IMG/VR virus record: IMGVR_UViG_3300031335_000002
Direction: 5' to 3' (one strand)
DNA: 64,000 nt
DNA from: an uncultured virus (IMG/VR IMGVR_UViG_3300031335_000002)
Taxonomy: Duplodnaviria > Heunggongvirae > Uroviricota > Caudoviricetes
In this document: positions 1,837 to 64,000 of the stretch, one piece after another
How positions within the stretch are numbered: position 1 is the first letter of the stretch
Layout: the number at the start of each line of letters is the position of its first letter
The notes under the pieces: model-generated
What the model was told of the DNA's origin: nothing
Seen by the model: the letters and a program-made list of their open reading frames with translations, nothing else
Databases searched by the model: none
Translations under genes and position numbers: made by a program

Positions 1837-2148
1837 AACGGGCTTTTTAGCAGCCCAACTAGACCTATTTTTCAGATTGTCTGATCTAGTCGCCTGCCTA
1901 AGGTTAGAGGGTTTGTTGTTCGATCTGTTTCTATCCTTATGATCAACATCACCAGATCTTATCTTCTTACCTGTAGTGATTTCTTTTACAATACGATGTT
2001 CATACACAGCCTTCCCGTCAATCCTTACAGTCCTATAACCATCACCATGATCAGTGCCCGCTCTTGCCCCTGCTCTGGCCCTACCAACACTCTTTTGATG
2101 GTATAGTTTTCCCCCCTTTAGGTTAAACTTTTCTTTCCATTTTTTCAT
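1828..2148 (-). CDS. HNH endonuclease (HNH_3-like)
   Basis: Motif YEHRIV...DVDHKDRNRSNNKPSNLR; start placed at ATG 2148 (ORF track extends to 2181). Confidence 0.85.
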   Translation of the reverse strand: MKKWKEKFNLKGGKLYHQKSVGRARAGARAGTDHGDGYRTVRIDGKAVYEHRIVKEITTGKKIRSGDVDHKDRNRSNNKPSNLRQATRSDNLKNRSSWAAKKPVKK

Positions 2149-2217: not shown

Positions 2218-5200
2218 TTAGTATACGCCAACTTCCCTGTTGTAGGACCCTACTCCACCGGCAATGTCTGGGATCATTGTAAGAACCTCTTTACGAGTTT
2301 GACGAGAGATGTCACCAGTGATGTTGATGTTAAACACCTGAGTATCCTTTGACTCTGTGGATCTATTATTAGTTCTAGCATCTTGGGTAGTTGTAACAAT
2401 CTCACCCGGTTTCAGTAAGGCAGGGACCGAGTCCTTACCTACCTGAGCACCCGGGATAAGAGGAACAGTACCACCACGGTCAGCTCCAAATCCAAATAAA
2501 CTAAAAGCACTAGAAAGTATACCTGATAGACCACCTCCTCCACCGAGTCCACCGAGAATATCAAACAGGCTAGAGGTAATTCCATCAAAGAATTCTTTTA
2601 TACCTGCAGTCTCAATTAAGGATGTAACAAATGCGTCAATGAAGGTGTCAACAACAGTTGAGGAGAATTTATCAGCAAAAGCCATAATACCACCTTCAAG
2701 ATCACCCTCTTTGAAGACCTTTCCTAGACCCTCTCTCAGACCGTCTCTAAGCCCATCAGATAGCCTCTGAGAAGTAGACAGCATAGAGTCGAGTCTAGCT
2801 TGAGCGCTAGAAAGCTCATTGTTAGCTCTCGCAATCTCTTCCGTATTATTAGCGCTTATGAGACCACGCTCACGAATGATACGGTTGATCTCTCTTTGGA
2901 GTTCTATTGCTCCAGCGCCACCACCAAGCACTTCAGGGCTAAACCCTGCGGCCTCTGCTGAGTTAACATTACCATTAGACAGGATTTTCTCTATTTCAGC
3001 TTCCTGATTCCTGATAATATCAAGCTGTTGTTTACGAAGGCCAACATTGGTAAGAGCAGAGTTGTTAATACGCTTTTCTGCTGCTTCGATCTTCTTGAGC
3101 GAAGAGAAGAGTGAGTTAGTTTCTCCACCAGTTAGGCCGACTAATCCTTCTATTGTTAGACCAATATCACTTAGCAGTCTTTGAATAGGAGTATTGGTAG
3201 TACCACCGCCACCACCACCGCCATTGCTAGTATTCAGACCCCCACTAGAGATAGCATCGGAAAGAGCCTTCCCTCTTGCCTTTAACTTTTCGATTACTTT
3301 GTCAATAGTTGTATCATCAACTTCGCCACCTGCTGCAAGAGTATCGCGAGCAAATGCAGCTGACAAGAACCCAGAAGCGATTTTACCAAGATTAGAAATA
3401 AGGCTATCCGGAGCATTAAGAAGTTTATCAGCATCAATTGAGATACCTTTTAGGGCAAGAGCAGAATTAATAACTTCAATGATCTGATCACGAGTAGCTT
3501 CGCCCTTAGCAAGGTCTTCTGAGAACAACTGGATATTAGCGGATTGAGAAAGCAGGCCAAGTATTTTACTAAGCTCAGCCTCATCTTGCTTAAGATTTGC
3601 AAACAGTCTAGCATTCTCATTAGTCACAACCGGCAGAGCACCAATTGCTTCCATTTGCTCTCTAACGTTCTCAAGCTCAGTTAGAGTTGATGAGATATCA
3701 GAGAACCCACCAAGGCTGATCTTAGTTGTCTCTATGCCTTCTTGGATACCAAAACTAGTGGCATCACTAGCAATCTGAGCGATCTTAGCGGGATCAATAA
3801 TATCACCGACTTCGTCCGCTAGTCTTGTAAAGTTTGCTTGAGCAGATCCATCTCGTAGTGCACTTGTAATAGTCTGTTCTAGGCTTGTTTCGGCCTCAGC
3901 CAAGAAGGATCTAGCTCTAGCAACATCACCATCGGTAGCGTCTCCAGCTTGTCTTCTAGCAAGGGTATCTTCTAGATTTCCTCTTCCCGCTAGAGCAGAT
4001 GAGAACGCATCAGAGATAAGCTTAGACTCTGAAGTAGAAATTAGAGATCTGTTACCAAGAGTATTTAGGCTCTGGTCCTCAAGTGCTCTTACAGCATTCT
4101 CAAAGTTTTCAGTTGCTCTTTGTCTAGCAACAAGCTCAGGGTTCCTACGAGCGGCTTCATCAAAGTTTGAACGAGCATCTCTAACATTACGATCCCTAAT
4201 AAGCTCAAGAATAGGGTTAGTAGTATTACTCTTCAGCGGGTTAAGTGTCGCATTACCAAATCGTTCTTCCGAAAGGGCAACAATCAGTTCATTGATAGAG
4301 TTGGTAAACTCTGTTGAGAACTCAGAAGGGTCTCTGTTGGCAATACCACCTAGGAGGGCGGCAGTATCTTCTCCAAACAGAGATTCTATTTGCTCCGGTG
4401 TTTGGTTTATCTGAAGGGCAGAAGCAAATCTAGTTAGACCTTCCGCTGTAACAGGTCCTTCCCCAAGTGTCTCTGCAATGTTAGCAAGAATGTCACTTTG
4501 TTTAGAGAAGTCTGATTGTTCCCCACCAAGGAATACGGTAATATCGCTAAGAAGATTTCTGAAATCAGCGAAGCCCGGTCTATTTTGAACACTTAGAGCT
4601 GCGGCAACCCCTGTATCTCTGTTAGCTGCCTCATCTGCTGCTTTATCAATAGCGGCAGTAGTTCTTTCTTGAGCGGCCTCAAGACGGCTTGTAGTCTCTG
4701 CTGTAGCACTACCATAAGTTAGAATTTCTTGGTTGTACTTGATCTGGATAGCCTCAAGACTATTAACAGAGTCAATGATCTTACCTGCTGAAACATCACT
4801 AAGAGCTTGGAAGTTAAGAGTTTCAATACTCTCTTTGTTTCTTCTATTCTCAAATGCATTACGACCAAATTGACCGCGAGCAGCAATGGTACGAGACGTA
4901 GAACGAACATCAACCGCATTAGAAACTGTAGCTTCGTTTAAGAGGCCAAGCTTACGTCTAGCGTAGTTTATTTGGCTATCAAACTTTCCCCTGAAGGTAT
5001 CTCCTTCACCAAAGATAAGTGTATAGGCAATACCGCCAACTACAACTGCAGCTGTAATAGTGGCAATAATCTTAAATGCTAAGGTAGCAATCACACCTTT
5101 AAGAAGAGTAGGAATAGCTAAGAGCGCCCGGCTAAGTAACCCAAGGATAGCAGAACCAAAGCTTTTGGCTGTATCAATAGCAAGACCAAGACCAAGTTTT

Positions 5201-12822: not shown

Positions 12823-15800
12823 TTAGGGTCCTACACCATAAAAATCTTTATTAGGTACGTCCGTCAATATGTCTTCCCTAGTTATAGGGTTAGGCGGATC
12901 AATAAGACCAAGTTGTTTTGCTTCAGCGAGAAGTTCATCGTAGGTAGCCTTAGGCAACCCCTCTTTTCGCATTTCAGCAAGAGTTCTTCGGATAGTATCC
13001 CCCTCTAGGGCATCCGCATAGATTTCACGGAGAGCAGCTTTAGCGTTATCTGCTTCCGCTAGATTAGTAAAGAAAGCGTCGTGGATTGTACCAGTAGACT
13101 TGCCCTCTTTGCGGCCCCACAAGTGGAACTTGCGAACAATAACCGCGTCGTTAGAATGGTTTCCATTCACACCCAGACCAATAGAAGCATCTTGGACAGA
13201 TCCTTTTCCAAGGAGCTTGCCGTCTTCAGCTTGTGCTGCATAGATGTTCATAACCTTTCGTCCTGTTATGGGATCCCTGAATTCAATTCTCTCTTGAAGT
13301 TCCGGTCGGTATCTTTGTGTCATAACCTTACCGTCAAAAGTCACCCACGGGATGTCTACCTTTTTAGTTTCAGTTGTAAAGCGTTTAGATACTCTTTTCC
13401 AGAAATTAATGAATTCATTTGTAACAGGTGCTCTGTCAGACAGCTTCTCTGACATTAGCGCAGAAAGTTCTTTAAAGTCATTTGGGCCAATCAGGCCTCC
13501 ACGAGCACTAGTCACCTTAGCAACAAAGTCTGCCGTGTCGCTGTGAATTTCTTCTGCTTCTTTTAGAAGCCTTAGACCAATAGACTGGTCCTTGTTCACC
13601 ATATTGATAAGCTCACCCCTAAAGGCTTTCAGATTAGCTGAAGTAAGTTCTGCACCAATCCTATCTGCTTGTTTGATCTGTGAATCAATTATCCTAAGCT
13701 GACCGCTTAGCTCTGATTTAGTAATTGTAGTAAAGCCTCTTTCATCTAGAAGTTTAGATAGCTTTGCTGCAACGTTAGCGGTCTTAGTTGCCTCACCGGC
13801 ACCGTAGAAACTTACCCAATTTGTTCAATGGGGTGGTTATTCCCATCCGCATAACAATAACTTAGCTATGCTGCTACATGTTTCCATGCAGATCAGACTA
13901 TATCATCAACCTCTCTGTAGTAGGTTGCCCTGCGCTTCCACTCGACACTTGAGTGTACTCCTCTCGGATAGTCGTTGAACGTTCCTTATACAATACTATA
14001 GTATTGTATGAGGCTTCGCTGCTGATTGTCTTCACCGTTACGTGGTCAGAGTTTCCAGCAATTCACAGGGTTTAAAGAACACAATATAAGTTTATGTTCT
14101 GCGCTTTAGCACCTTTAGCAAGATCCTCCCAAGTCAAGTTCGCGTCACGGAGCGCCTTAATCTTGTTGAAACGAGGATCATTAATGGTGTCAATAGCCAC
14201 TAGGTCATAGAGTCTATTCTTTTGTGTCGTAGGAACAACGTTAGAGGCTTCCGAGACCATACGGTCCCCAGTAGAAAGCCCGATAATTTGTGCACCAGAG
14301 GACGACGCATCGTTCTCTATCATAAGACGTGTTTTAAATGATTTGAGTTTAGCAGCATCTCTCATGTCGCCGCCAACGTGGTCATATACACGAGCATACT
14401 CTAAAGCCATACGAGACATCTTAGGTACCTCGGGTCCTTCTAGACCCTTGATTAGGGGGTGTTCTAGGAACTCCCTCATACGCCTGTCTCTCTGGGTTTC
14501 TTGCTGCATTAGCCTTCCTAGAGAAAGGATGTCTTCCCGCTTTCTCTGAAAGATAGCCTTACGACCACTAAGGGTAAGAGCCTCTGTACCGGGTCCAATC
14601 ATAGCTCCAATCTGGGTTTCTAGCTCATCTACTGCATTGAGAGTCATTGGAGTAGCAATAGCATCATCTAAAAAGGGTCGAACCATCTCACCACCAGTAG
14701 GTGTCAGGTATCCACGGTGGTAGACACGGCCACGGCTATCCATGTATGTATCCGACCAAAAGGGTTTACCACGATTTGTCTGGTACCTGCCTGCTGTCAT
14801 GAAACCAAAGCCTTGGTCACCACGTTTGATGATCTCGTGTCTAAACTCATTAAGGCCATCGTAGTAATCTGTGTTACCGCGAGGGTCACGGAACCTAACA
14901 ACATCATCCATAAAGTTAAAGAACACCGGATCTGTTTGGTATTGTGTACCAGAGGCTTGGTTTAGAGCATTAGCAAAGTCTGCATCAACCTGATTTGCGT
15001 CAAAGCTAGCGTACTTACGTCTAGATATGATAGGTCTGCCGGTAACATTACCACGAGCATCAAAGGCTTCCTTCTTACCAGCGCGGACAAACTGCCTATC
15101 TCTATCAAAAGAAATACCCATACGTCTGCCAACAACAACTCGTCTTTCAGCCTTCTGTAGCTCAATAAGACGTTTGTCGATTACCTCAACCTCTCTAGAA
15201 ACTGTGTCTCCCCAGAAGCCTGTGGCACGACCTGTCTCTACATCTAGAACACCTCTGCGGGTCTTACCACGGTAGTTGAGACGGATCATCTTTCTGTCCT
15301 TCATGTAATCAAGGACTCTGGAACCGTCTTTGTGGTAGTCTTGTAAAGTGTGTTTCTGGAATGGGTTAACATCTTCTAGATCTTTTGCCATTTGTTTACC
15401 AATAGCAATAGAAAGACCGTCGTAGTCTGTCATTTGTCCAGAACCAACAAGCTTTACTGCTTTAGAAAGAGAGTTGAGTACTTTGTCATCCATTACCTTT
15501 GATGTAGGATTCTTCTTAGATGTAAGAAATTCAAAGTCAATAATTCTACGAATACGTTCATCGATACCACGTTCAAATCTAACAGCTAATTCGTCTGTGG
15601 GTGTTCTATACCATTTTAGGTACTTAGCAAATGAGGTTTTCTCCCAACGCTTCTTAAGTGTTTCGGGCTTCTTGACTTTTCCTAGAAGACCTTGGAAATA
15701 AGACCTTGGTGGGCTTTTCCCTCTGAAGTAAAGCTCTTTCGAGAGTTTAGCTCCAACACCAGTACGGAAGGAATCAATAGACCTCTGATCTGCAAGAAGT

Positions 15801-17494
15801 CTATCCTGTAGCTGATCAATCTTGTAGTAATCACCCATAAGCTGGACTTGAGGTCCTCCTTCTTTAGCACCAAAGAAGCGAGAAAATAAGTTGTATTTAT
15901 CTCTCTGTCTAGTATCAAGAAGACGGGCAGTGTTCTGAACAGCAAATCTATTTTCTGCTCTAAGTACATTAGCAAAGTTGTCCCAAGGCTGCTTGTCTTT
16001 CCTAGCTCGCTCTATTACAACCCTAAGGTTTTCAATAGCAACTGTTTGCTGATTTGTTGACACTTTCTCTTCTAAGGAGTTAATCACAGATCCAATGAAG
16101 TCTTTATCTTCAGATTGGAGGACTTTAGAGTTCCTCATGAAGTCAAGACGTTCTTGTAGAAGTGTGTAGTTAGGATCATAAAGGTTGTTGTTTCTTGCCT
16201 CACCTGTAAGGGGGTCGAAGCTATTATTACTTTCATCGAAGATGTTAGCTGTACGGCGACGAGCGGTTTGTTTACCTTGCAGTGTTGTACCTTTAAAGTC
16301 CGTTAGAGAGTAAGTTTTACCGAGATCATCAGCATCATTGACAAATAGATCTACAACCTCTCGCTTATACTTAGCATTCCTGACGAGGGTGCTAGGGCGC
16401 GCCACAGCGATCTGTGTTACGACATCTTCACCTATCGACTGCTTAGGGCGGAAAATGTTAGTAAGATTAGCAGCACGACGTCTCAAAGCAGTAATAGAGA
16501 GTGCGCTACCTTGAGGTGTCACGAAGTTATCGGCTTTGACTTCTCCTTTTCGGAAAAGATCTGCCTTTTCTTGACTACCAAGGATCTTTGTTTGGACATC
16601 ATAAGCCTGACGTTTAAGCCACTGACCAAAGGTTTCTTTCTCTGGGGGAGATCCTGTTAAAGAACTTCCTTTCGTGGTTTCAAGAGCAGCTAAATTGATC
16701 CTATCAGACTCTTTCTTTAGCAGTTCGGCTTTGCTCTCAAATATAGGAACAAGGGTAGAACGGCAGTTAAAGTGTAGTGGAGGGGCAAAACGCCTATCAC
16801 CTACATCATAGATCTTACCATCATGATAACGACAAATGCTAGAAGTACGATTATCAAGCATTGCTTGGAACATGTAGCCTTTGATGGCTTCCTTGTTTTC
16901 CCCTACCGCACTAAACAGAGCATCGCGCTGCGTAGCTGTGATACCTGTACGAGAAAGAGTACCCGCTTGGTGGGCTGTCATCTTGGTTGTTTTGCTGACG
17001 TCACTAATAATTTGATTTTGAGACTTATTATCTCTACGACCACGCTTCAACCAAGTTTGTACCCTAGTTGTCTCACCACGAGCAATGTTCTCTACGTTAT
17101 TTTTGATAGCAGCATCACCGTTGATACTAGCGCCAGTAATATCTGCTAGATCAGCCTTGTTCTTAGGTCTACGAACGGAGAACCATCCTTTAGTGTGTTT
17201 TGAGATACTATCAGTGTAGAAATCTACCTCAGCACCATGTAGCTCTGTCAAATTTGTCTTCTGCCAAGAAAAGAGCTCTGTAGCAAAACGGTTTTGCTCT
17301 CGTCTGAATTTGTTGGCTATTTTCTTCTTTTGATCAATAGTAGTTGTTGCTAAGTCTTCCTTAACAAGCTTAACTAGAGACTCACGATGACGATTTACAA
17401 TACGACTATTACCAATCTGAATGCTCTCTTCGAACTTTCTAACGTCAGTAAGGTGATCAATCACCTCGTCGTTCATTTTCTGTGTAACATCCAT
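12823..17494 (-). CDS. MuF/SPP1-gp7-like head protein fused to T7/SP6-family single-subunit RNA polymerase; spliced, exon 1 17494-14094 plus exon 2 13816-12823, about 1464 aa
   Basis: MuF motifs LDNRTSSICRYHDG and PPLHFNCRS. RNAP motifs DSRGRVY, A (NDASSSGAQ), B (K-AQNM|VSFYG, formed only after splicing), NGNHSNDA and C (TIHDAF). AGGAG RBS before ATG 17494. Confidence 0.9.
13817..14093 (-). ncRNA. group I self-splicing intron (IA-like), 277 nt, no ORF
   Basis: P1 AGAACAU/GUGUUCU with U.G at the 5' splice site; P10 AAACUUAU/GUAAGUUU; P AAUUGCUGGAAA; Q AAUCAGCAG; P3 CCCUGUG/CGCAGGG; P7 GACUA/UAGUC; terminal G; removal restores the frame. Confidence 0.93.
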
Positions 17495-17520
17495 TCTAGC
17501 AATCTCCTGATTGGTAAGTT

Positions 17521-17581
17521 TGGTGGAATGAACCGCACAGTCCTTGCAAAAGACCGTCGCCCCCTTAGAACATGTCACCCC
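17521..17581 (-). pseudogene. tRNA-Ala(UGC)-like gene lacking the T arm
   Basis: Acceptor GGGGTGA/TCATTCC with G3.U70, loop TTTGCAA, ACCA end; no complete T arm. Confidence 0.6.
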
Positions 17582-17664: not shown

Positions 17665-17740
17665 TGGCCGACCCGGAAGGACTCGAACCCTCACTTGAAG
17701 ATTAGAAGTCAACTGTTCTATCCTGTTGAACTACGGATCA
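17665..17740 (-). tRNA. tRNA-Arg(UCU)
   Basis: Cloverleaf, loop CTTCTAA, GGTTCGAGTCC, CCA end. Confidence 0.88.
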
Positions 17741-17792
17741 GTGTATAGTGTTTATAGTTTATGTGTGTCGTATCCTAGCTTAATCTTATGTA

Positions 17793-17868
17793 TGGTGGTC
17801 CTGCCGGGACTCGAACCCAGATATTACGATTATAAGTTGTACGCTCTAACCAGTTGAGCTACAAGACA
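17793..17868 (-). tRNA. tRNA-Ile(UAU)
   Basis: Cloverleaf, loop CTTATAA, TAGCTCAACTGGTTAGAGC D arm, CCA end. Confidence 0.85.
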
Positions 17869-17881
17869 TTGATTATTAAAT

Positions 17882-17968
17882 TGGTACGGGTAGAGGGAGT
17901 CGAACCCCCACGTCTTTTAAAACACTAGGACCTAAACCTAGCGCGGCTACCTATTTCGCCATACCCGC
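17882..17968 (-). tRNA. tRNA-Leu(UAG)
   Basis: CTAGG-TTTAGGT-CCTAG anticodon arm, long variable arm, CCA end. Confidence 0.9.
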
Positions 17969-17969
17969 A

Positions 17970-18047
17970 TGGTCCCCCCACCCCGGACTCGAACCGGGAG
18001 AACCGGCAGTTTAAGTGCCGTACGGTTACCAATTACGTCAGTGGGGA
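17970..18047 (-). tRNA. tRNA with UAA anticodon (Leu), short variable loop
   Basis: CGGCA-CTTAAAC-TGCCG; CCCGG-TTCGAGT-CCGGG; CCA end. Confidence 0.8.
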
Positions 18048-18065
18048 ATGGTACCGTGTAATTAG

Positions 18066-18140
18066 TGGTGGAAAGGGGAAGAATCGAACTTCCTACGCGC
18101 AGGGCTTCAACCTACCGCTCTACCTCTGAGCTAATCGGGT
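18066..18140 (-). pseudogene. tRNA-Phe(GAA)-like gene with non-pairing acceptor stem
   Basis: D, anticodon (TTGAAGC) and T arms plus CCA are intact; 5' ACCCGAT does not pair with 3' CCTTTCC. Confidence 0.7.
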
Positions 18141-18152
18141 AAATATAAATAA

Positions 18153-18206
18153 TGGCAGCTTAGGTAGGACTCGAACATACATGTGTTACCAGTCAGCCAC
18201 TAAGCT
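18153..18206 (-). pseudogene. 54-nt tRNA-like element lacking the anticodon arm
   Basis: Perfect acceptor AGCTTAG/CTAAGCT, T loop TTCGAGT, GCCA end. Confidence 0.6.
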
Positions 18207-18212
18207 ATTAGT

Positions 18213-18359
18213 CTATCCAGCGATGAGAGCAAGAAAGATCACAAAAGCTATTGCCCCGCCACCTACAAGGAGGCCAAGTGATTTAGTCTTAGACCAAGCT
18301 TTCACTTTATCTTTTGCTTCGATGACTTTTTCCTTTGCTGTATCAATGATGTCTTTCAT
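18213..18359 (-). CDS. small membrane-anchored protein inside the tRNA cluster
   Basis: 48 aa from ATG 18359 with AGGAG RBS; C-terminal transmembrane segment. Confidence 0.65.
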   Translation of the reverse strand: MKDIIDTAKEKVIEAKDKVKAWSKTKSLGLLVGGGAIAFVIFLALIAG

Positions 18360-18382
18360 TGTATATCTCCTGATATCGAATA

Positions 18383-18457
18383 TGGTTGCGCAGAGGGGAG
18401 TTGAACCCCTAGTACAGGCCTTATGAGGGCCGCGTGTTACCATTACACCACCGCGCG
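18383..18457 (-). tRNA. tRNA-Met(CAU), initiator-like
   Basis: C1xA72 mismatch, loop CTCATAA, TTCAACT T loop, ACCA end. Confidence 0.85.
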
Positions 18458-22150: not shown

Positions 22151-25100
22151 TTGAACCTCACAAATATAGAAGAAATACAGTCAAGAAGTTCAATATCACC
22201 AGATTCTCCCATCCAGTATACAAATACAGAAAAGAGCGCTTCTGCAGGATTTCCATTAAAAGATCTAATGTTTTCAAGATCTTTAAGAACGCTTACAACA
22301 GTAACGTAGTCGGTTTCTTGTTCTATTGGTGATAGAAGACGTTGTTTCATAACATGGTAGCCAGTACCACGGACTTTACCATCACCTTGGTATATATCAA
22401 CAGTTCCTGTTCCTGTTCCTGCAGTAGTAGCAGAGAATAAATCTCCGGGGTTGTATAAAAGACCTGCTGTACCGGCCATGTTATTCCAGGTGCCTTGAGA
22501 GGTAGACCCTAATGATTTTATTATGTAAGTGACCCCAGATATAACCGAAGTAACAGGTATGTCAATAATGTTTGTTGTGCTAATAGTACTCCCAACAGAT
22601 TTAGTCTGTCCTACGGTACCATCCAAAGCATTCCAGTTTGCTTGCCCCGCACTACCAAGGTCGAGGATTGTGTAAGAGGAAAGGCTATTCATAAATCCAC
22701 AGCTAACATCCATTAACACATAAGGACTACCCGCTTCAATTTTATAACCCCAAGCATCATTATCTGCGACTAAATTAGAGTAAACATGCTCGAAGTTAAC
22801 AGCAATCTGAACATCAGCATTATAAGCAGGGGGTATATCTAAGGTAGCCCCGCCCACTAGTTGTAAGAAGTTAATCCCCTGCATAGGTAGGTTTCCCCTA
22901 TATAAATTATCTTCTAGCTGAGTGATATTACCACCCTTAACTATAAGTTTACCACTACCGTCCGAGGATAAGCTTCCATCTCCAATACTGATTTTATCAG
23001 CAGTTAAAGTATCGCTTACAAGCAGATTACCATCAATGACTTCATCTTGCTTAACCCAAGTAGATCCGGTATAGATCCATACAGATTGACTAGTTGGACT
23101 AGCCTGTGCACCTGTATAGAACCAAGCTTGATCACTTGAGATTGGTGGTGTAGGTGTATTGAGATCAGAGTTCCATCTCGTCTGGGCTGTATAAGCACTA
23201 GTAGGAAGAGAGGTAACAGGTATGTTCCATCTCCCCGGACCTCTAGCACCTACGGGTCCATCTTCACCGTCACTACCACTCATACCAACGACACTTGCCG
23301 CAGAGAACTCAGCGGTATTAATGATGTCGGTACTTTCACGACTAGCCGCCGTAGCTTGAATAGCAAAGAGATACTCTCCCGCATTAAGAGACGGAGCAGT
23401 CTGTGCCCAGTTTCCTAGGATACCTGTTAAGACGCCTGTATTAAAGTTGTAGGTCAAGTCACCAGTAGGATCCGCTGGTGGTGTAGTAGTTGTATTCTTA
23501 GCGTAGAGAGTAACAAACGCTGTATTGATACCGTCTTGGCCAGCCGAAGACTCAACAACCGGATTAGAAAACTCTGTTCCAGCTAGGGAGTTTGTCGCCG
23601 TAGTAGCTGAAGCAGTAGCTCTAGTTACCCATAGCTCTTCGTTTGGATTCAAGCTAGGGGGTAGCTTAGACCACCCGTTGAGGTTACCACCAGTAAGATC
23701 TGCTGTGCTAAAGGTATAATTAAATGTACCAGTAGGTTTAGGTGGTGGGGTAGAACCAGAGGCTAGTTTCTGGAATAACAGAACAATTGCTGAGTTAAGA
23801 CCATTTTCACCGTCACTACCACCAATACCGCTAGAAACGATAACAAACGGAAGAGATATTAGAGCAATAGACGTACCATCATTAAACTGAAAAGTAACAG
23901 TTGCAAGTTCATCATTAACACTAACACTAGGTGTAATAAACCCAACGTTTACTTCATCTGGTATATCCGCTGATCTGTCTGTAACAGGGGCAGACCAAGT
24001 ATTACCAGAGCGCGACAGTCGGTAACGGTTTCTTGCTACAGTAAGACCTGCTTTAATAAAGATTACATCAATATCAAGGAATGTATCACTGTAAGTTCCT
24101 GCATTAGGATTGTATATGATCTGGCCTTGTGTGACATACACCGCATTTGATGTGATACCTGAGGTCACAGGTGCTTGGCTAGTAACCTGTATGTTGTCTG
24201 AGTAGGCACTAGAATTACCTTGAGTATCAACTGCACAAACCCTGTAGTTATACAGTGTATTTGGTAGCCTGTTAGAGTCAGTAAACTTAGAACCAACCTC
24301 TGTACCAACTAGGGTTGTTGGGTTAGCAAACACAGACCGATAAATCTGGTACTCTTTGAAGTCTAGCAGAGGTGAGTTATCAATGTTTTGTGTAACTTCG
24401 TCCCAAGTTAGATCAATTACGGTACCCTCGGCAGTAGCCACTAGGTTTTGTGGAGGTTTAGGGAAAGTACTATCAACACCAGAAGTGAAGGCGATATGTG
24501 TAGGCTCAGACTCTAAGCCAGAGGTAAGAATAGTTTTCACTATTGCATGGTAATCCTTACCCCCATCGAGGGAGGGTATCCTAACAGAGTTTGATACACT
24601 CGTAGCTGTTTGCCGTAATACATCATCTACCTTCTTATACTCAATAAGGTAAGAAGCATCATTGTATACAGTATCCCAAGTTAGATCAACGTAAGAGTTA
24701 GATACTGCGCCTTTAAAAAATTCTACCCCTGTAGAGGCTTGCAAATTTGTTGGCTTACTAATAGTAAAGTCAAACACAGGTTGAGAAGTATAAGGAATAT
24801 CATCTGGCACATTCCAAGCAAACATGTTAGCTGTTACAAGTGTTGCTTTGACTTTAACAGAAAAATCCACCCTGATTTCAACTTCTTCTGCTTTCCAAAT
24901 ACCATTTGGGGCGTTCGTAAGTTCAGAGTCAATTCTGAAGAAATCACCGGGTTCAATCCTAAGACCTTTTCTGCTTAAAGTGATCTCAAGGTTATTTGAG
25001 TCACGAGAGATCCTTACTGTTTGCTCAGCTTCAGCCATAGCGTGGTAAGGTGTCGTAGCATCAGAAGTAATTGTACTCTCATAGATCTTATTGTTGTCTT

Positions 25101-42955: not shown

Positions 42956-43315
42956 TCATTTAGGTTTTCCTTTGCTATAATAGTATTCTTCTAGAGCATT
43001 TGCAATCTCACTAAAGGATTTACCTTTGTCATTCATTTCTGTAGCAATTCTTGATATTTTTGAGTCTTGGGTGAATTTCATTATGTGGTCATAGGTTATC
43101 TCGTGTCCTTCAAAAGTAAAACCACTTTTATTAAGACTCTCAACTTCCATAGGGCCGAGATGAAACAAATCATTAAGTACACCAAGGCAGCAATAACCTG
43201 TCTTACCAAACTCTGAAACACCCATAAGTGTCCCTTGTATTTGCTGGTACTTACCACTGCGGAGTGCGGCCATCCATTGATTAAATTCCTTATCAGTTAT
43301 TTTAGCAATTGTCAT
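42956..43315 (-). CDS. hypothetical phage protein
   Basis: WMAALRSGKYQQ..GTL...GYCCLGVL...MNDKGKSFSEIA, a conserved-looking phage family. Confidence 0.8.
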   Translation of the reverse strand: MTIAKITDKEFNQWMAALRSGKYQQIQGTLMGVSEFGKTGYCCLGVLNDLFHLGPMEVESLNKSGFTFEGHEITYDHIMKFTQDSKISRIATEMNDKGKSFSEIANALEEYYYSKGKPK

Positions 43316-43661
43316 AGTTTTTCACCTTACTGTAATCCACCCTAGGGCAGAAATTGTATTTGATAGACCGGTACTTTGTATTGATAAGGCCGGGCGGTTT
43401 GGCCACGTAGTTTTGTCTCCTTTTCTCAAAAATTTCTTCATAGCCTTTAACAAATAGCCAAGATTTTTTGTTAGGTTTGTAAGATTCAATCACAGTTGTT
43501 TCCTCTCGAAACTATCGCATACCACTTGTTATCTCTCGGAGACATATATGGTTTGCGGGTTATAGTATCGTAGCCTTGCGCAGGATACTTTCTCAGGTAG
43601 TTAGAAGACGCCACAAGGGCGTCCTCCTTTGTCTTAAATGGACCAAGATCCTCATACACCA

Positions 43662-43904
43662 TTACACAGCCACGCTTTGGGACTTCTGGTGATTCTTCTT
43701 GTTGTTAGCATGGACTTCATTGGGGGTTGCAGTAACCCAATTCCGCTTACCATGCCGATCAACTTCAGAACGAATGTTAGGCGATCGACGACGACCAGAC
43801 TTAGCCGGAAGCCCGGCTTTCTGCCTAGCGTTAATTCCAAGAGCACTCTTGTGGCTGCTCTGACGTGCCTTTGCTTTACCAATTCCAGATTTTCCACCAG
43901 CCAT
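43662..43904 (-). CDS. small basic protein
   Basis: 80 aa, K/R-rich; AGGAG RBS. Confidence 0.6.
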   Translation of the reverse strand: MAGGKSGIGKAKARQSSHKSALGINARQKAGLPAKSGRRRSPNIRSEVDRHGKRNWVTATPNEVHANNKKNHQKSQSVAV

Positions 43905-43928
43905 TGATTTTCTCCTTATCCTATGTGT

Positions 43929-44318
43929 TTAGATTACGTCCAGATCCACCCAGCTTGCTGTGAAGACCATGTTAGGGAGAGGACCTCCTTGATCTATGAT
44001 AAGCTGCATGATGTCCTCTCGATTATGGCCAGCCAGACCACAACCAATTGGTGTGATAACAAACAAGAGACCGGGGCGAGCCTCAGCATACTTGATAAAC
44101 CTATAGACAAAGTTCTCAATTTTATCGAGAGACAAAGTCTGCATACTCCCGTCTTTAGTAGGGATAGCATAGCACCGGCCAGTACGGCCAATCCCTACAC
44201 CCCAAGCTGCTCCAAGGCTTTGATGTGCGTAGGAAGCCGCCCCTGCACCGTGATAACCAGCGAGGTTAGAACCAAAAACAAAGCATAGGTTGCTCACAAG
44301 ATCCCAGTTATAAGCCAT
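43929..44318 (-). CDS. macro-domain-like phage protein (FVFGSN family)
   Basis: FVFGSNLAGYHGAGAA...YAIPTK...TPIGCGLAG. Confidence 0.8.
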   Translation of the reverse strand: MAYNWDLVSNLCFVFGSNLAGYHGAGAASYAHQSLGAAWGVGIGRTGRCYAIPTKDGSMQTLSLDKIENFVYRFIKYAEARPGLLFVITPIGCGLAGHNREDIMQLIIDQGGPLPNMVFTASWVDLDVI

Positions 44319-59314: not shown

Positions 59315-60191
59315 TAACGGCGTGGGAATTGGTGATTTCTTCGTATTCTTCTGGGTCAAATGTCCAAATGTCTCCTTTTGTCCTCCAGATATGAAGGAGA
59401 CTACCATTGAACAAAAGCTTCTTGAAACCCTCGTTACCGTATTTAAGACCATACTTAGAAACTACCACCTCTTTGTGTTCTTGTGGTGTTGTCAAGCCCG
59501 ACAAAATCTTACCTGCCTTGATTGGTCCTATTCCTTCTATACCCGGAATATTGTCAATGGAGTCGCCGGTCAACATCTGTTTCCAGAAAAATATATCGGC
59601 TTGTTCCTCATTGACGTGCCAACGCCTCTTAGCGTTAACCTCTGTTTTTGGGTCTAAATGATATCCGGGTATCATGTCTAGGTCTTTGTCAACCGTGACT
59701 ACAACATAGTTATCTTCCCCTAGCTTGGTAGCCCAGACACCAATAGCGTCATCTGCTTCGTAACCTTGACAGTAATGGGCATCAAATACATCTACTGCCC
59801 AGAACCTTAGCTCATCAATATAAGGCGCTCTTTTCTTATTAGATGTTGCCCTTGCTTTTTGAAGCTTGTACTCTGGATGTATTTTCTTTCGAAAGTTATC
59901 CTGAGAGTTGCCAACTGCCATTGAGTACACAGCCTCTTCTTCTGGTATGTAGTGGCTCTCGAATATGTGCTCTACAAAATGCTCAAAACGGTCTTGAGCG
60001 TGTTCAATTGAAGGCTGATAGGTTTGTTTTGCTGCTTCTATCTCCTTAAGACTTGCACCTCTCCACTCCATCTCTTCTAAGTCAGCCTTAGATGCTGGTT
60101 TTTGCCAACAAGCCATGTGAACAAGAATATCACCATCGATTAAGAGTCTCCTGTTCTTTGGCTTATACTGGATTACTTCCTGCATTATCAT
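59307..60191 (-). CDS. 5'-3' exonuclease (T7 gp6 / PolI N-terminal-like)
   Basis: LIDGD, YEADDAIG, DKDLDMIPG, GDSIDNIPGIEGIG. Confidence 0.92.
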   Translation of the reverse strand: MIMQEVIQYKPKNRRLLIDGDILVHMACWQKPASKADLEEMEWRGASLKEIEAAKQTYQPSIEHAQDRFEHFVEHIFESHYIPEEEAVYSMAVGNSQDNFRKKIHPEYKLQKARATSNKKRAPYIDELRFWAVDVFDAHYCQGYEADDAIGVWATKLGEDNYVVVTVDKDLDMIPGYHLDPKTEVNAKRRWHVNEEQADIFFWKQMLTGDSIDNIPGIEGIGPIKAGKILSGLTTPQEHKEVVVSKYGLKYGNEGFKKLLFNGSLLHIWRTKGDIWTFDPEEYEEITNSHAVIV

Positions 60192-60474
60192 CTTCCTCTG
60201 AAATTAGGTCAAGATCAATTCCTTGCATTACAGCACTTAGGATTTCAGTCATCACCCCCTCATAAGCCTGTTGAAAAGCAACATCTTTTCCAATTGGGAA
60301 ATCCGATACAATCTCAATTGGGTAATCTGTCCCTTTCTTTGATGCCAGTTCACTAAGAGCAACTGCAACATTTGGAAAAGACTTTACCTCTAGTCGGAAT
60401 CGATAAGTGTATTCTTCTCCCTCACCCTCTTCATGGGTAATTCCGTATTCGTATTTGTTCATATTAGTATCCAT
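60163..60474 (-). CDS. hypothetical protein
   Basis: 103 aa acidic ORF. Confidence 0.65.
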   Translation of the reverse strand: MDTNMNKYEYGITHEEGEGEEYTYRFRLEVKSFPNVAVALSELASKKGTDYPIEIVSDFPIGKDVAFQQAYEGVMTEILSAVMQGIDLDLISEEDDNAGSNPV

Positions 60475-60659
60475 TGTTTACTTTTTTGCCCCGCGAATAG
60501 TCTTTGGTTTGAACCATTTCCAGTCATTGACTCTTTCATTTTCAAAAGGTCTTGGACGTAGCTGTCCTGTAACCGGGTGATACTCTTTTTCTCCATTGAG
60601 AGGATGCAACCTATTAACCTTTTTGATATTCTTTGGTTTCTTCTCCACTGCGTATTCTT

Positions 60660-60962
60660 TTATACCTTCTCCCCATACTTTTGGGGGTGTAGAGAGAAGT
60701 TTCCTTCAAGTTCATTTTCCCAATCTACACCTAGAGCCTTTAGGAGTGCTGCAAGACACCTAACGTCAAACCTGACTGTGTCTACTCCAAAGTCTGTGTT
60801 TTGAACAATTTGAAGAACCCCATCTCTTGATATGTACACTTTCATAGGGTCTCCAGTAGGTTGCCTTTGGAAGTCTATAATTCTGACTCCAGACTTATTC
60901 TCAACGTTAATCAATATGTCTGGTAGCCTGTTTTCTTTTTTGTTTTTAGTCTTATGGGACAT
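60660..60962 (-). CDS. hypothetical protein
   Basis: 100 aa, coupled in operon. Confidence 0.6.
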   Translation of the reverse strand: MSHKTKNKKENRLPDILINVENKSGVRIIDFQRQPTGDPMKVYISRDGVLQIVQNTDFGVDTVRFDVRCLAALLKALGVDWENELEGNFSLHPQKYGEKV

Positions 60963-61155
60963 TTAGACCTTTCGATTTTACGAACTCTTCAAGCTCTAGA
61001 ATTCTATACCACATAGAAAGAGTGAAGTTTGGTAGGTCATGGTGAAAGTTCAGACCTGTGTAGTAACCATGTCTCAAGACTCTACCGGGTTTATCATTAA
61101 AGTTTTTGTTGAACTCAATGCTATAAGTGTCGTCAATCTTTTTAACTTTGGTCAT
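60952..61155 (-). CDS. hypothetical protein
   Basis: 67 aa. Confidence 0.6.
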   Translation of the reverse strand: MTKVKKIDDTYSIEFNKNFNDKPGRVLRHGYYTGLNFHHDLPNFTLSMWYRILELEEFVKSKGLNVP

Positions 61156-61185
61156 TGATTGTGTACCCTATCTTTCTTATTATGA

Positions 61186-63213
61186 TTAGTGGACTTCAAA
61201 GTAGTCTTTTCCAGCTTTACAATCCCCGCATACCATAATGTCAACACCGAATTCTTTCGGGGCTTCCTTAAAACTCTCAATGATGATTTCTTTTGCTCTT
61301 TCAACGTAATCGTTTCTTACTTCAATATTGATCTCATCATGATAGAACAATAGGAATCGGTGGGCAATGCCCTCTTCTTTAAACCTACGCCAAATCATGG
61401 AGATAGTTGCCTTCATAACGATCGCCTCAGCACCTTGGATGAGGTAGTTGAGAGCTTTATGAGGCTGATTGCAATAGATATGTCGATCGTCTAGACCTAC
61501 GATAAATCCTTGCTTTTTTACAATATTTTTAACACGATTGATCAAGCTATCAAGGTTTGGATAAGCCTTTTGGAACTCCTCTTTAAGTTGGAAACCAACA
61601 GACTCGGGAAGCTTTAGAATCTTGGCAAGTTTAGGCCCTCCGGCACCGTAAAGAAATGCAAAAATGAAGGGTTTGGCATCTGCTCGGCTGACAATAGTTG
61701 ATGACTTAAGAATAGATGTAGCACTACGAGAAAGAATATTAGCATTGTTCTGATGCATGTCTCCTTCGAGAAGTTCTTTTAGGAACTCATCATCTTTCAT
61801 GTAATGAGCTAGAAGCCTTAGCTGACAACCAGCGGAGTCAGCCGACACAACAGACCAACCCTCTTCAGCAATAAAGAGGCTTCTGACTTCTTTCCCAAGT
61901 GTAGCATTACCTGATGGTAGATTTACAATAACGGACTGAGTCTGTCTAAAGGTTGGTGTACCAATATTAATAACATCTCCGTGGAGACGATCATCATCAG
62001 AGAAATGATCTTCCCATCCATCCATAATTGATTTACGAGACCTTAGAGTGTAAAACTCATTAATGTCTCCTGCGTTATCAAGCAACTCTAACGAAGTACT
62101 AGTAATTTTTGGGGAAGTCCTTTTCCAATAACGTTTACCTCTTTCGTCAAACTCCCACTTACCATTCCAGTCATCTGGCTCCCAGCCAATTTTCCATAGA
62201 TATCGTTTAACTGAGTCTGTAGAACCAATATCAGCATCACGGAATGTTACACGACAGTAATCACCCCAAACACCGTAGTTGTTCTTCTTACCTGCATCCT
62301 TTGGTAAGTCAAAGGTTTCACGAAGTGCTTTCGAGAACAGACCATTCTTTTGAACAGCCCATTTCTTAGCAAAGCCACCAGTGAAGTTGTCGTGATCGTA
62401 CTCGTCTGTGTATCTTATGGTGTCAGATTTATACCCTTTCCGATCTCCACTGATCTTCTGAGGCTCTTTACCAAGACGAGGATTAACTTCTGATGTAATC
62501 TCATCCATACGTTTGTCAATTTTATCGATAACATCACAAACGCTTTTCCGATCAATTAACCAACCGTTAATGAGTTGTTCTGCGGCAATTCTAGCAGAGT
62601 CTGTCTCAATTTGGATAGCTCTTACAATGTTCTTCTGCCCTGATTTGACCATATGGGTTACTTCGCCTAGTAGTTCTTTATAAATAGGAACCATAAGACG
62701 AACGTCTTGTTTCATATACTCAAACATTTCTTTACTGAACTTAGTAAAGTCTGTCCATTCACCTTTGTAGTTGTCAAGGTGAATACCCCATCGGGCAAGG
62801 CTGTGGCTATCACCCATGACAAGCTTAGGTTTTTTAAACAAACCAAAATCACCCTGTTCATTCCGCCATTTTAGATAGTTTTGGTAGTTCTGATCAGAAG
62901 CATCAAACCTATTATAATTGAGCACTCTAGACATAACATGGGTATCAACAAACTTATCGTGATTATGCTTGTACCATGTTATACCGTTAAGTCTTGCTAG
63001 CTTAATAAGTAGGTATTCGTCGTAGCCCGCGCCGTTATGAGCAGCGCGGACATCGTATGTACATAGGTCTCTTAAAAACTTTTCAAATTCGAGAGGACCG
63101 TACCATTTTTCTTCCTTAGTATCAAGGTCTATAATACCGCCGCAGAACCATCTGTCTGCGCTTCTTAGGAACCCGTTTGCTTCAGTGTCGTAGACACACC
63201 TTCGTCTAGCCAT
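61186..63213 (-). CDS. family A DNA polymerase (T7-like, with 3'-5' exonuclease)
   Basis: YDTEANG, HNGAGYD, motif A ADSAGCQLRLLAHY, motif B AKPFIFAFLYGAG (Phe at the position of E. coli PolI F762), motif C YHDEI. Confidence 0.96.
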   Translation of the reverse strand: MARRRCVYDTEANGFLRSADRWFCGGIIDLDTKEEKWYGPLEFEKFLRDLCTYDVRAAHNGAGYDEYLLIKLARLNGITWYKHNHDKFVDTHVMSRVLNYNRFDASDQNYQNYLKWRNEQGDFGLFKKPKLVMGDSHSLARWGIHLDNYKGEWTDFTKFSKEMFEYMKQDVRLMVPIYKELLGEVTHMVKSGQKNIVRAIQIETDSARIAAEQLINGWLIDRKSVCDVIDKIDKRMDEITSEVNPRLGKEPQKISGDRKGYKSDTIRYTDEYDHDNFTGGFAKKWAVQKNGLFSKALRETFDLPKDAGKKNNYGVWGDYCRVTFRDADIGSTDSVKRYLWKIGWEPDDWNGKWEFDERGKRYWKRTSPKITSTSLELLDNAGDINEFYTLRSRKSIMDGWEDHFSDDDRLHGDVINIGTPTFRQTQSVIVNLPSGNATLGKEVRSLFIAEEGWSVVSADSAGCQLRLLAHYMKDDEFLKELLEGDMHQNNANILSRSATSILKSSTIVSRADAKPFIFAFLYGAGGPKLAKILKLPESVGFQLKEEFQKAYPNLDSLINRVKNIVKKQGFIVGLDDRHIYCNQPHKALNYLIQGAEAIVMKATISMIWRRFKEEGIAHRFLLFYHDEINIEVRNDYVERAKEIIIESFKEAPKEFGVDIMVCGDCKAGKDYFEVH

Positions 63214-63620
63214 TCGTCTCCTCCTTGGAAAGTCTCGTTAGGAATACCGGGATAAAAGAGATTCATGTCTACACCAAGGTCTTTACACTGTTTAATCTTT
63301 CCCATGTGTGCCCAAGGAGCAAATTCCCGTGGCTGTTTCTGTGTATCAGAAATGCGGTTGTGAGCATCCATAAGATACCAGATTGCCTTTTCTAGCTCAA
63401 TACGCTCATCATCTTTTCGACCAAGACGAGTTTGATACTTTAGTGCGTTGACCACACTCGGTGTAACATAGGGATTGATCTTACTACCAATGTAGGCAGC
63501 AAGGTCATTGTATCCAATGTCCCTACCAGTTTGCAAGGCTCGGATCATTTCCTCTGCCGGAATCAGTTGGTGATGCTTAGCTTGCACCGAGTTTTGGCCT
63601 TTTTCACGTTCTGTTGTCAT
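63165..63620 (-). CDS. DUF3310 / T7 gp1.7-like nucleotide kinase
   Basis: NALKYQTRLGRKDD...ELEKAIWYL. Confidence 0.7.
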   Translation of the reverse strand: MTTEREKGQNSVQAKHHQLIPAEEMIRALQTGRDIGYNDLAAYIGSKINPYVTPSVVNALKYQTRLGRKDDERIELEKAIWYLMDAHNRISDTQKQPREFAPWAHMGKIKQCKDLGVDMNLFYPGIPNETFQGGDEWLDEGVSTTLKQTGS

Positions 63621-63880
63621 ATAATACCTCTTCTTTAGTTATAGTTAAGACTGTTCCTTCTCACTCTGGAGAAGGTCTGTTTTCTTAGCGTACACTGGGA
63701 TTGCCTCTTTTTTGTGGTGGTTATAAAAGTTTGCGCGTCTCTCTGTGTCATACATCTTTCCTCTAAGTCCTATCAACGCTGAAGTTTGTTCTTTCTCTGT
63801 TCCGTTTCGGGCAACTACATCTCTCCACCTCTTGACACTGAATACGTGGGGGACCCACCAACCAACACAGACCTCTTCAT

Positions 63881-63898
63881 CTTTAACGTCTGCTAATT
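63881..63898 (-). promoter_or_regulatory. class A variant phage RNAP promoter
   Basis: AATTAGCAGACGTTAAA|GATGAA upstream of the DUF3310-polymerase operon. Confidence 0.7.
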
Positions 63899-64000
63899 GC
63901 TTTTCAAACGGCGCTTTTTTTTTTTAGTTTCAAAGATATCATCCATTATAAGCTTCTTCTTCAATTTCATCAAGTGCCTTAGAGAGATCATAACGCAGGG

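Follow-up and report, generated by a model that had tools for sequence, protein, structure and literature searches.

Known systems and the locus under study

That group I introns interrupt phage polymerase genes at conserved motifs is textbook knowledge. The Bacillus phages SPO1, SP82 and Bastille reportedly carry such introns, with HNH endonucleases of the I-HmuI type, in their DNA polymerase genes, and HNH-bearing group I introns in the DNA polymerase genes of T7-like phages are said to have been described by Bonocora and Shub in 2004. The element considered here is a 277-nt insert without an open reading frame (ORF), very probably a functional self-splicing group I intron of phage type and a selfish mobile element, located in a gene of the uncultured caudovirus IMGVR_UViG_3300031335_000002. 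The spliced gene product (about 1,464 aa) would consist of a MuF head domain and a divergent single-subunit RNA polymerase (RNAP) of T7/N4 type. Coordinates are positions in the window, that is, the whole stretch of 64,000 nt that was analysed, and both the MuF-RNAP gene and the intron lie on its minus strand. Labels of the form L### denote fetched loci from IMG/VR or phage genomes, L001 being DSS3_VP1 and L002 EBPR siphovirus 1.

Like the DNA polymerase introns of the Bacillus and T7-like phages, the insert interrupts a conserved motif for nucleotide binding in a polymerase of family-A type, has sisters that encode an HNH endonuclease of the nicking type, and belongs to a set of different introns inserted a few nucleotides apart in the motif; unlike them, it resides in an RNA polymerase gene fused to MuF and lacks an endonuclease. 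A group I intron within a T7-like phage's DNA polymerase gene is also described for Pf-WMP3 in the accessible portion of that report (PMC3428280). Regarding RNA polymerase genes, the accessible sections of two papers place introns in the virion RNAP beta gene of PhiPA3, gp210 (Birkholz et al., 2024, PMC11620839), and in multisubunit RNAP genes of jumbo phages (Merk, Jones and Eddy, 2025, PMC12350094). As far as these sections go, the shared trait is that a self-splicing intron interrupts a catalytic motif in the gene for a probably virion-borne phage RNAP; the PhiPA3 and jumbo-phage enzymes are multisubunit two-barrel polymerases and the PhiPA3 intron is armed, whereas the enzyme in the window is of the single-subunit T7/N4 type and its intron is unarmed. 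A divergent single-subunit polymerase among the virion genes, probably delivered with the DNA, is also what the window shares with phage N4, whose virion RNA polymerase is gp50; all N4-like virion enzymes described in the available part of Iyer et al. (2017, PMC5512222) carry a metallopeptidase module. On the basis of that part, gp50 has 3,500 aa against about 1,460 in the window, where a MuF fusion is found instead of the metallopeptidase module. The window phage is moreover siphovirus-like, with a tape-measure gene, unlike N4.

The window phage is related to the uracil-DNA roseophages (Naomviridae). DSS3_VP1, a member of the same Naomviridae-like group, has a group I intron with a homing endonuclease in its large terminase gene, according to the part of the paper that was available (Rihtman et al., 2021, PMC8323127). 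The element class is thus the same as in the window and the two MuF-RNAP proteins are 64-66% identical; however, the MuF-RNAP gene of DSS3_VP1 is intron-less and Rfam detects no terminase intron in the window. This DSS3_VP1 gene (NC_055826, 21242-25633, 1,463 aa) is annotated as "head morphogenesis" or "minor head protein-like" and is a MuF-RNAP fusion; the term "RNA polymerase" has 0 occurrences in the main text of PMC8323127. Since DSS3_VP1 also has an annotated T7-like RNA polymerase (43240-44184 region), the uracil-DNA roseophages encode two single-subunit polymerases. In EBPR siphovirus 1 (JF412302, 4912-5761) GenBank has three genes, gp47 as "head protein", gp48 as "HNH endonuclease" and gp49 as "hypothetical protein". 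In fact they make up one gene, a MuF-RNAP homolog with 34-35% protein identity: gp47 is its first exon, gp49 its second, and gp48 the ORF of the HNH-bearing group I intron that splits it in motif B, as in the window. The EBPR intron scores 40.5 bits against the Rfam group I model RF00028, below the cut-off of 50 (E 2.4e-7); unlike the insert in the window, it has its splice site 3 nt downstream (AUG GU/A) and its core cannot be aligned by blastn to that of the window.

In the open-licence literature, supplementary files aside, no report was found of a single-subunit RNAP gene that holds a group I intron, or of a MuF-RNAP fusion. An earlier note on this stretch, made from its letters alone, had called an intron in such a gene unusual; this stands with regard to the literature, and is overstated with regard to the phages themselves, as the related phages have several insertion sites in the gene and the same phage holds a second intron in its other polymerase gene. 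As a mobile element the intron is of a familiar type, whereas its host gene is less familiar, and the locus reveals no new mechanism. For genome annotation it means that, because of the intron, a second and probably virion-borne RNAP in a group of uracil-DNA phages escapes gene callers and Pfam. For intron mobility it provides a compact natural series, with armed and unarmed copies at one nucleotide, sisters at neighbouring nucleotides and one lineage whose two sites have nothing in common but a 6-nt guide match.

The insert and its boundaries

The features of the interrupted gene are the following.

14094..17494, minus strand: exon 1, with MuF, the RNAP N-terminal domain, DxxGR and motif A (ORF, Pfam, PHROG)
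13817..14093, minus strand: group I intron, 277 nt, no ORF (RF00028, fold z-score, covariation, intron-less homologs)
14072..14074, minus strand: TAA closing the unspliced reading after ...AQNINLYCVL (ORF translation)
13825..13827, minus strand: TGA in the frame of exon 2, four codons before it (translation)
12823..13816, minus strand: exon 2, with completion of the split Met, VSFYGAG..., the Tyr-Gly of motif B, the remaining part of the fingers, motif C (IHDAFF), the C-terminus and the stop (translation, 330 aa)

The RF00028 model (Intron_gpI, gathering score 50 bits) matches 14103..13874 (minus) over its full length (1-253) with 103.1 bits and an E value of 1.2e-25, and the elements described in the earlier note are all present, in agreement with the ORF-less group I intron at 13817..14093 that it had predicted. 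An Rfam scan of the whole window at a permissive threshold (E<=1) found no intron besides this one. Exon 1 ends in ...CAG AAC AU, U14094 being its last base, and the intron ends in G13817, followed from 13816 by exon 2 (G GTA AGT TTC TAC GGT). In-silico excision yields ...AKAQN-M-VSFYGAG... in one reading frame, with a predicted ligated junction in which ...CAGAACAU is joined directly to GGUAAGUUUC. Without excision, the frame reads ...AKAQNINLYCVL (AQNINLYCVL) and stops at TAA 14074-14072, as anticipated in the earlier note; this unspliced ORF (17578..14072, minus, 1,168 codons) ends 7 codons into the intron, and a second open frame, VSFYGAGEATK..., runs from 13815 to 12823 (minus).

The intron boundaries are fixed because intron-less homologs are contiguous across the site. 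In the DSS3_VP1 homolog the tblastn pieces end at 24634 and resume at 24638, the gap being the one codon of the split Met, and the junction reads AAN-M-VTFYG without interruption. A scan of IMG/VR with exon 2 found 458 relatives, from which 80 loci were kept. Both halves of the gene were present in 72 of these 80 loci: 64 were intron-less, 6 had the 277-nt intron and 2 had an intron of 847 nt. Over all scans (three more added, duplicates removed) 103 of 110 distinct sequences are contiguous, so that the comparison with intron-less homologs proposed in the earlier note does not show the two halves as consistently separate proteins. The 277-nt insert itself occurs in 6 IMG/VR contigs with 97.5-100% identity, and a seventh contains 146 nt of it (94.5%). 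A megablast search of the region against phage records returned a tRNA-sized match only.

Anatomy of the ribozyme

The elements of the intron are given below in their order along the transcript, the exon-2 strand of P10 standing last.

14077..14099, minus strand: P1, exon GAACAU (14099-14094) with guide GUGUUC (14082-14077) (covariance-model alignment and sequence)
13907..14070, minus strand: catalytic core (minimum free energy fold, in agreement with the Rfam structure line)
14070-14064/13934-13928, minus strand: P3 (minimum free energy fold and Rfam structure line)
14060-14055/14025-14020, minus strand: P4 (same basis as P3)
14050-14044/14036-14029, minus strand: P5 (same basis as P3)
14019-14001/13996-13979, minus strand: P6/P6a (same basis as P3)
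about 13973-13969, minus strand: 5' strand of P7, GACUA (RF00028 alignment)
13968-13959, minus strand: P7.1 hairpin (minimum free energy fold)
13955-13939, minus strand: P7.2 hairpin (minimum free energy fold; it covaries)
13927-13907, minus strand: P8 (same basis as P3)
13874..13900, minus strand: 3' strand of P7, UAGUC (about 13900-13896), J7/9 and the P9 hairpin (13891-13885/13880-13874)
13817..13871, minus strand: 3' tail with P9.1 (13871-13865/13855-13849), P9.2 (13847-13842/13832-13827) and the terminal G13817 (minimum free energy fold)
13808..13815, minus strand: exon-2 strand of P10 (exon-2 nt 2-9), opposite intron nt 1-8 (14093-14086) (pairing scan)

The alignment to RF00028 contains P1 and P3 to P9, with P7 as GACUA/UAGUC, and P2 is absent. 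P1 has six pairs with the wobble U14094.G14082 at the 5' splice site, the G being nt 12 of the intron, and can be extended by A1 and A2 pairing with U10 and U11. The same P1 U.G arrangement is present in L015 and L168, and the guides of sisters at other sites match their own exons (UACGGU/GCCGUA in L162 and L168, AAGGCU/GGUCUU in L085). The P1 wobble, P10, P3, P7 and the terminal G named in the earlier note were all recovered, P10 being stronger (8 bp) than had been claimed. A P10 of 5 to 9 bp is possible in 6 of the 7 introns examined: the window can form 8 bp, L015 5 bp without a change of register, L168 9 bp, the EBPR intron 6 bp and L162 8 bp. Between the window and L015 it shows compensatory exchanges (A3-U7 to U3-A7 and C4-G6 to G4-C6); for the window alone, 493 of 20000 shuffles attain 8 bp.

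The minimum free energy fold reproduces P3, P4-P5, P6/6a, P8 and P9 and adds hairpins resembling P7.1 and P7.2 and two 3' hairpins. Its energy is -80.6 kcal/mol, against -62.5 +/- 5.4 for shuffled sequences (z -3.35), and 0 of 200 shuffles were as stable. Among six sister sequences, RNAalifold finds compensatory change at 19 of 46 consensus pairs, located in P3, P4, P5, P6, P7.2, P8 and P9. The 277-nt copies differ from each other by 5-7 positions; when mapped by hand, positions 130, 131, 150 and 181 fall in loops or distal stem ends, and 228, 254 and 267 are only partly placed on the fold. Hairpins P7.1 and P7.2 between the 5' strand of P7 and the 3' strand of P3 are a trait of subgroup IA (phage-type); the intron has two hairpins at this place and may belong to that subgroup.

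The MuF-RNA polymerase gene

The frame of exon 1 is open from 17578, and its likely start is ATG 17494, where MDVTQK... aligns with the start MDINQK... of the DSS3_VP1 protein (P0003). Exon 1 contains a Phage_Mu_F domain (PF04233) at aa 185-276 (44.1 bits, cut-off 29.6) and matches phrog_241 (E 3.5e-45). Its residues 936-1132 match phrog_414, "RNA polymerase", of which exon 2 covers positions 633-788. The Pfam RNA_pol model (PF00940, cut-off 22 bits) gives 18.7 bits with exon 2 and no match with exon 1, while a contiguous relative, L072, passes it with 25.3 bits over aa 486-858, across the intron site. Taken with the three GenBank genes of the EBPR homolog, this bears out the statement in the earlier note that the intron hides the gene.

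A family profile was built from 24 intron-less relatives. Against T7 RNAP it gives E 4.9e-4 with three collinear stretches (DxxGR, motif A and motif C), in which DSRGR, ENDASSSG and IHDAFF align to T7 RNAP 420-463, 527-576 and 722-840. For motif A the nearest solved structure is chain 6dt7_B of N4 RNAPII (E 0.039). The intron lies inside a K-x3-M-x3-YG block that is invariant in the family, and the location claimed in the earlier note, motif B of a MuF-fused single-subunit RNAP, is upheld on this pattern. A DNA polymerase was considered as an alternative identity and rejected: motifs A and C find their matches solely among T7, N4 and mitochondrial RNAPs. With 56 representatives at 50% identity, the family is a small one, and its members are typically 1,420-1,550 aa long. 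The residues invariant in the 24 intron-less relatives are retained in 118 of 121 cases in exon 2 and in 157 of 167 cases in the polymerase part of exon 1. The gene is located between those of the portal (phrog_145) and the major head protein (phrog_247) and upstream of the tape-measure gene, as in DSS3_VP1. What is known of the MuF/SPP1 gp7 proteins, together with the example of N4, suggests that the polymerase is probably delivered with the DNA in the virion.

Exon 2 cannot be translated alone with motif B intact, because an in-frame TGA (13825..13827) lies upstream of it, no start codon occurs between this TGA and the junction, and the next in-frame start is ATG 13602.

Sister introns, endonucleases and insertion sites

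Introns inserted at exactly the same nucleotide as that of the window, with the same guide, were found in L015 and L016 (847 nt) and in L168 (931 nt), and encode an HNH ORF of 190-208 aa after P9. An endonuclease ORF is also present in the L162 and EBPR introns, and the EBPR endonuclease shares 38% identity with that of L015 (E 1e-31). The window intron and the L015 core agree in 160 of 200 aligned nt (80%), and their flanking exons are 62-71% identical. The window intron lacks the ~570 nt that carry the ORF in L015; its last 46 nt align ungapped with those of L015, where they form the end of the HNH ORF, and 33 of the 46 are identical, a value that none of 20000 shuffles attained. When the sister HNH proteins are used as queries, tblastn gives no match in the window (best E 4.6, L015 type). 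The window copy is most likely the endonuclease-free form that results from loss of the endonuclease.

Among related phages, four insertion sites lie within 23 nt of motif B, and each guide matches its own exon.

After GCU (between A and Q): L085, intron of 765 nt with a 178-aa ORF that by eye has an NHIDGN-type motif like the L003 endonuclease described below
After AAC AU: the window type
After AUG GU: EBPR siphovirus 1
After UAC GGU (between YG and A): L162, 17-854, with an HNH ORF

L168 has a second intron at 4470-4689 (220 nt, ORF-less), three codons before the stop and after UACGGU (WYG). Its core most resembles that of the L162/L166 intron, at 77-78% identity across 180 nt (E about 1e-31); the latter intron is inserted after FYG in motif B, the two sites share only UACGGU, and the guide is GCCGUA in both. 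Judged from these sequences, the presence of the L162/L166 lineage at two sites looks like guide-directed ectopic insertion, and the second UACGGU site suggests that jumps may proceed through the 6-nt internal guide (reverse splicing) and not through the endonuclease. Elsewhere in the window, just downstream of the tape-measure gene, 1870-2040 (minus) resembles the HNH_3-type endonuclease of L085 (36% over 61 aa, E 4e-5) and may be a free-standing or decayed homing endonuclease.

Gene callers report many exon-2-like ORFs of 327-335 aa in relatives. In the two cases inspected (L085 and L162) these short ORFs are preceded by group I introns and not by plain gaps. The ORF starts at the motif-B Met in 9 of the 21 proteins fetched, and one related fetched locus, L161, is contiguous. 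In the distant relatives P0049, P0056 and P0061-P0063 (42-46% identity) ORFs of 331-332 aa likewise start at the motif-B Met; these "MI[AS][FL]YGAG" ORFs lie on contigs of up to 85 kb.

Mechanism and alternative explanations

In the proposed mechanism, the ribozyme would fold within the transcript and free guanosine would attack after U14094, held by the U.G pair of P1. The freed exon end would then attack after G13817, with exon 2 aligned through P10, and the exons would be joined as ...CAG AAC AUG GUA AGU..., bringing the Lys/Met/Tyr-Gly block of motif B and the downstream motif C into frame. Members of the intron family target motif B, and the window copy, devoid of an endonuclease, would persist without homing of its own. 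The best reading is that the intron is selfish but tolerated, and that the polymerase is made only when it is spliced out.

Several points weigh against this reading. The motif B assignment, well supported by pattern and position, is not a statistical one: the best ungapped match sets the split Met on M635 of T7 RNAP and is not significant, as 1870 of 2000 shuffled queries score as well; hhalign of family profile positions 359-847 with T7 RNAP 420-838 reaches a probability of 66.5% with motif B out of register; and a sub-profile of motifs A and B is collinear with yeast mitochondrial RNAP 854-955 only weakly (E 0.42). The 46-nt tail could be old ribozyme sequence that an ORF entered later, and the window copy may then never have gained an endonuclease. 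Finally, no RNA run is listed that contains window 13300-14600, and the spliced junction is unseen. This would also suit a dead intron, with the polymerase lost, or a gene that yields two polypeptides. N4 RNAPII, the closest solved match of motif A, is reportedly a split single-subunit polymerase of two polypeptides, and the many short exon-2-like ORFs called in relatives would agree with such a split. Nevertheless, the ribozyme has an intact core with a score double the Rfam cut-off; of the 5-7 positions at which the copies differ, four are confined to loops or distal stem ends (three being incompletely placed); nearly all invariant residues are kept in both exons; exon 2 lacks a start codon and is closely preceded by a stop in its frame; and both short-ORF relatives inspected have a group I intron upstream. 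Both alternatives are thus improbable. Predicted from the sequence, splicing is the only economical reading because the exons are conserved, exon 2 is not separately translatable and the phage is abundant.

In the earlier note splicing was proposed to gate the production of active RNAP against a truncated MuF product. Such tuned splicing, switching between a product that ends in INLYCVL without the Tyr of motif B and motif C and the full polymerase, is consistent with the 1,168-codon ORF of the unspliced RNA and with the intron in the T7-like RNAP gene of the same phage, by which both polymerases need splicing. However, the gene works ungated in the intron-less majority of its relatives (103 of 110), a family that carries homing endonucleases at several nearby sites bears the signature of selfish spread, and nothing conserved that would serve regulation specifically was found. 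Neither the sequence nor the relatives speak for the gate, and this proposal is considered unlikely, little less so than a dead intron or a split gene. A chance resemblance or an assembly artefact might be suspected from the metagenomic source and from contigs that fork inside the intron; given the E value of the RF00028 match, the recurrence of the insert in 6 IMG/VR contigs and in part in a seventh, its coverage by 24 DNA runs and the contigs that span both intron-exon borders, this is hardly credible.

Beyond the favoured reading of a tolerated selfish intron, it may be speculated that the codons of motif B are contested between co-occurring phages, with at least 4 insertion points in 23 nt, of which a single HNH family serves three. 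The window intron would then persist by breaking the endonuclease target, which would render its host phage immune to armed relatives during co-infection. This possibility is tentative and rather doubtful; if true, with an armed second intron in the phage, all of its own transcription would depend on ribozyme activity.

The phage in salt-lake samples

The phage is abundant in all 24 listed salt-lake DNA runs (24/24), with 0.94-0.97 of the sampled words present. In contigs from four DNA runs no intron-less joint and no indels were found; such contigs drop rare variants and are uninformative on intron-less alleles. In four salt-lake DNA runs, window 13870-13906 is where contigs break or fork, and several low-depth contigs share only these 37 nt, with 1-2 differences. 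The fork implies that further group I introns of these communities have a near-identical P7/P9 stretch.

Another intron, in the T7-like polymerase gene

Record G001 of IMG/VR matches window 60000-64000 with 100% identity and continues ~11.7 kb past it; because it starts inside exon 1, the 277-nt intron site is not part of it. Its T7-like RNA polymerase gene (PF00940, 167.8 bits) is split, ~3.4 kb past the end of the window, between R and G of the DFRGR (DxxGR) motif, as DFR/GR.

G001:C1 52909-53629 (L003 1675..955), minus strand, about 3.4-4.2 kb beyond base 64000: 721-nt group I intron (RF00028, 53.4 bits)

This intron encodes a 172-aa endonuclease with NUMOD4 and HNH_3 domains. With introns in the MuF-RNAP and the T7-like RNAP genes, both polymerase genes of the phage therefore hold introns; DSS3_VP1 has the same T7-like polymerase with no intron mentioned.

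Neighbouring tRNA genes

Five tRNA genes (Arg-tct, Ile-tat, Leu-tag, Leu-taa and Met-cat) are located at 17665-18457 (minus), between the portal and MuF-RNAP genes. Within the same interval, 18077-18133 gives a weak, partial tRNA-like Rfam match (34.4 bits) that was not called by ARAGORN.

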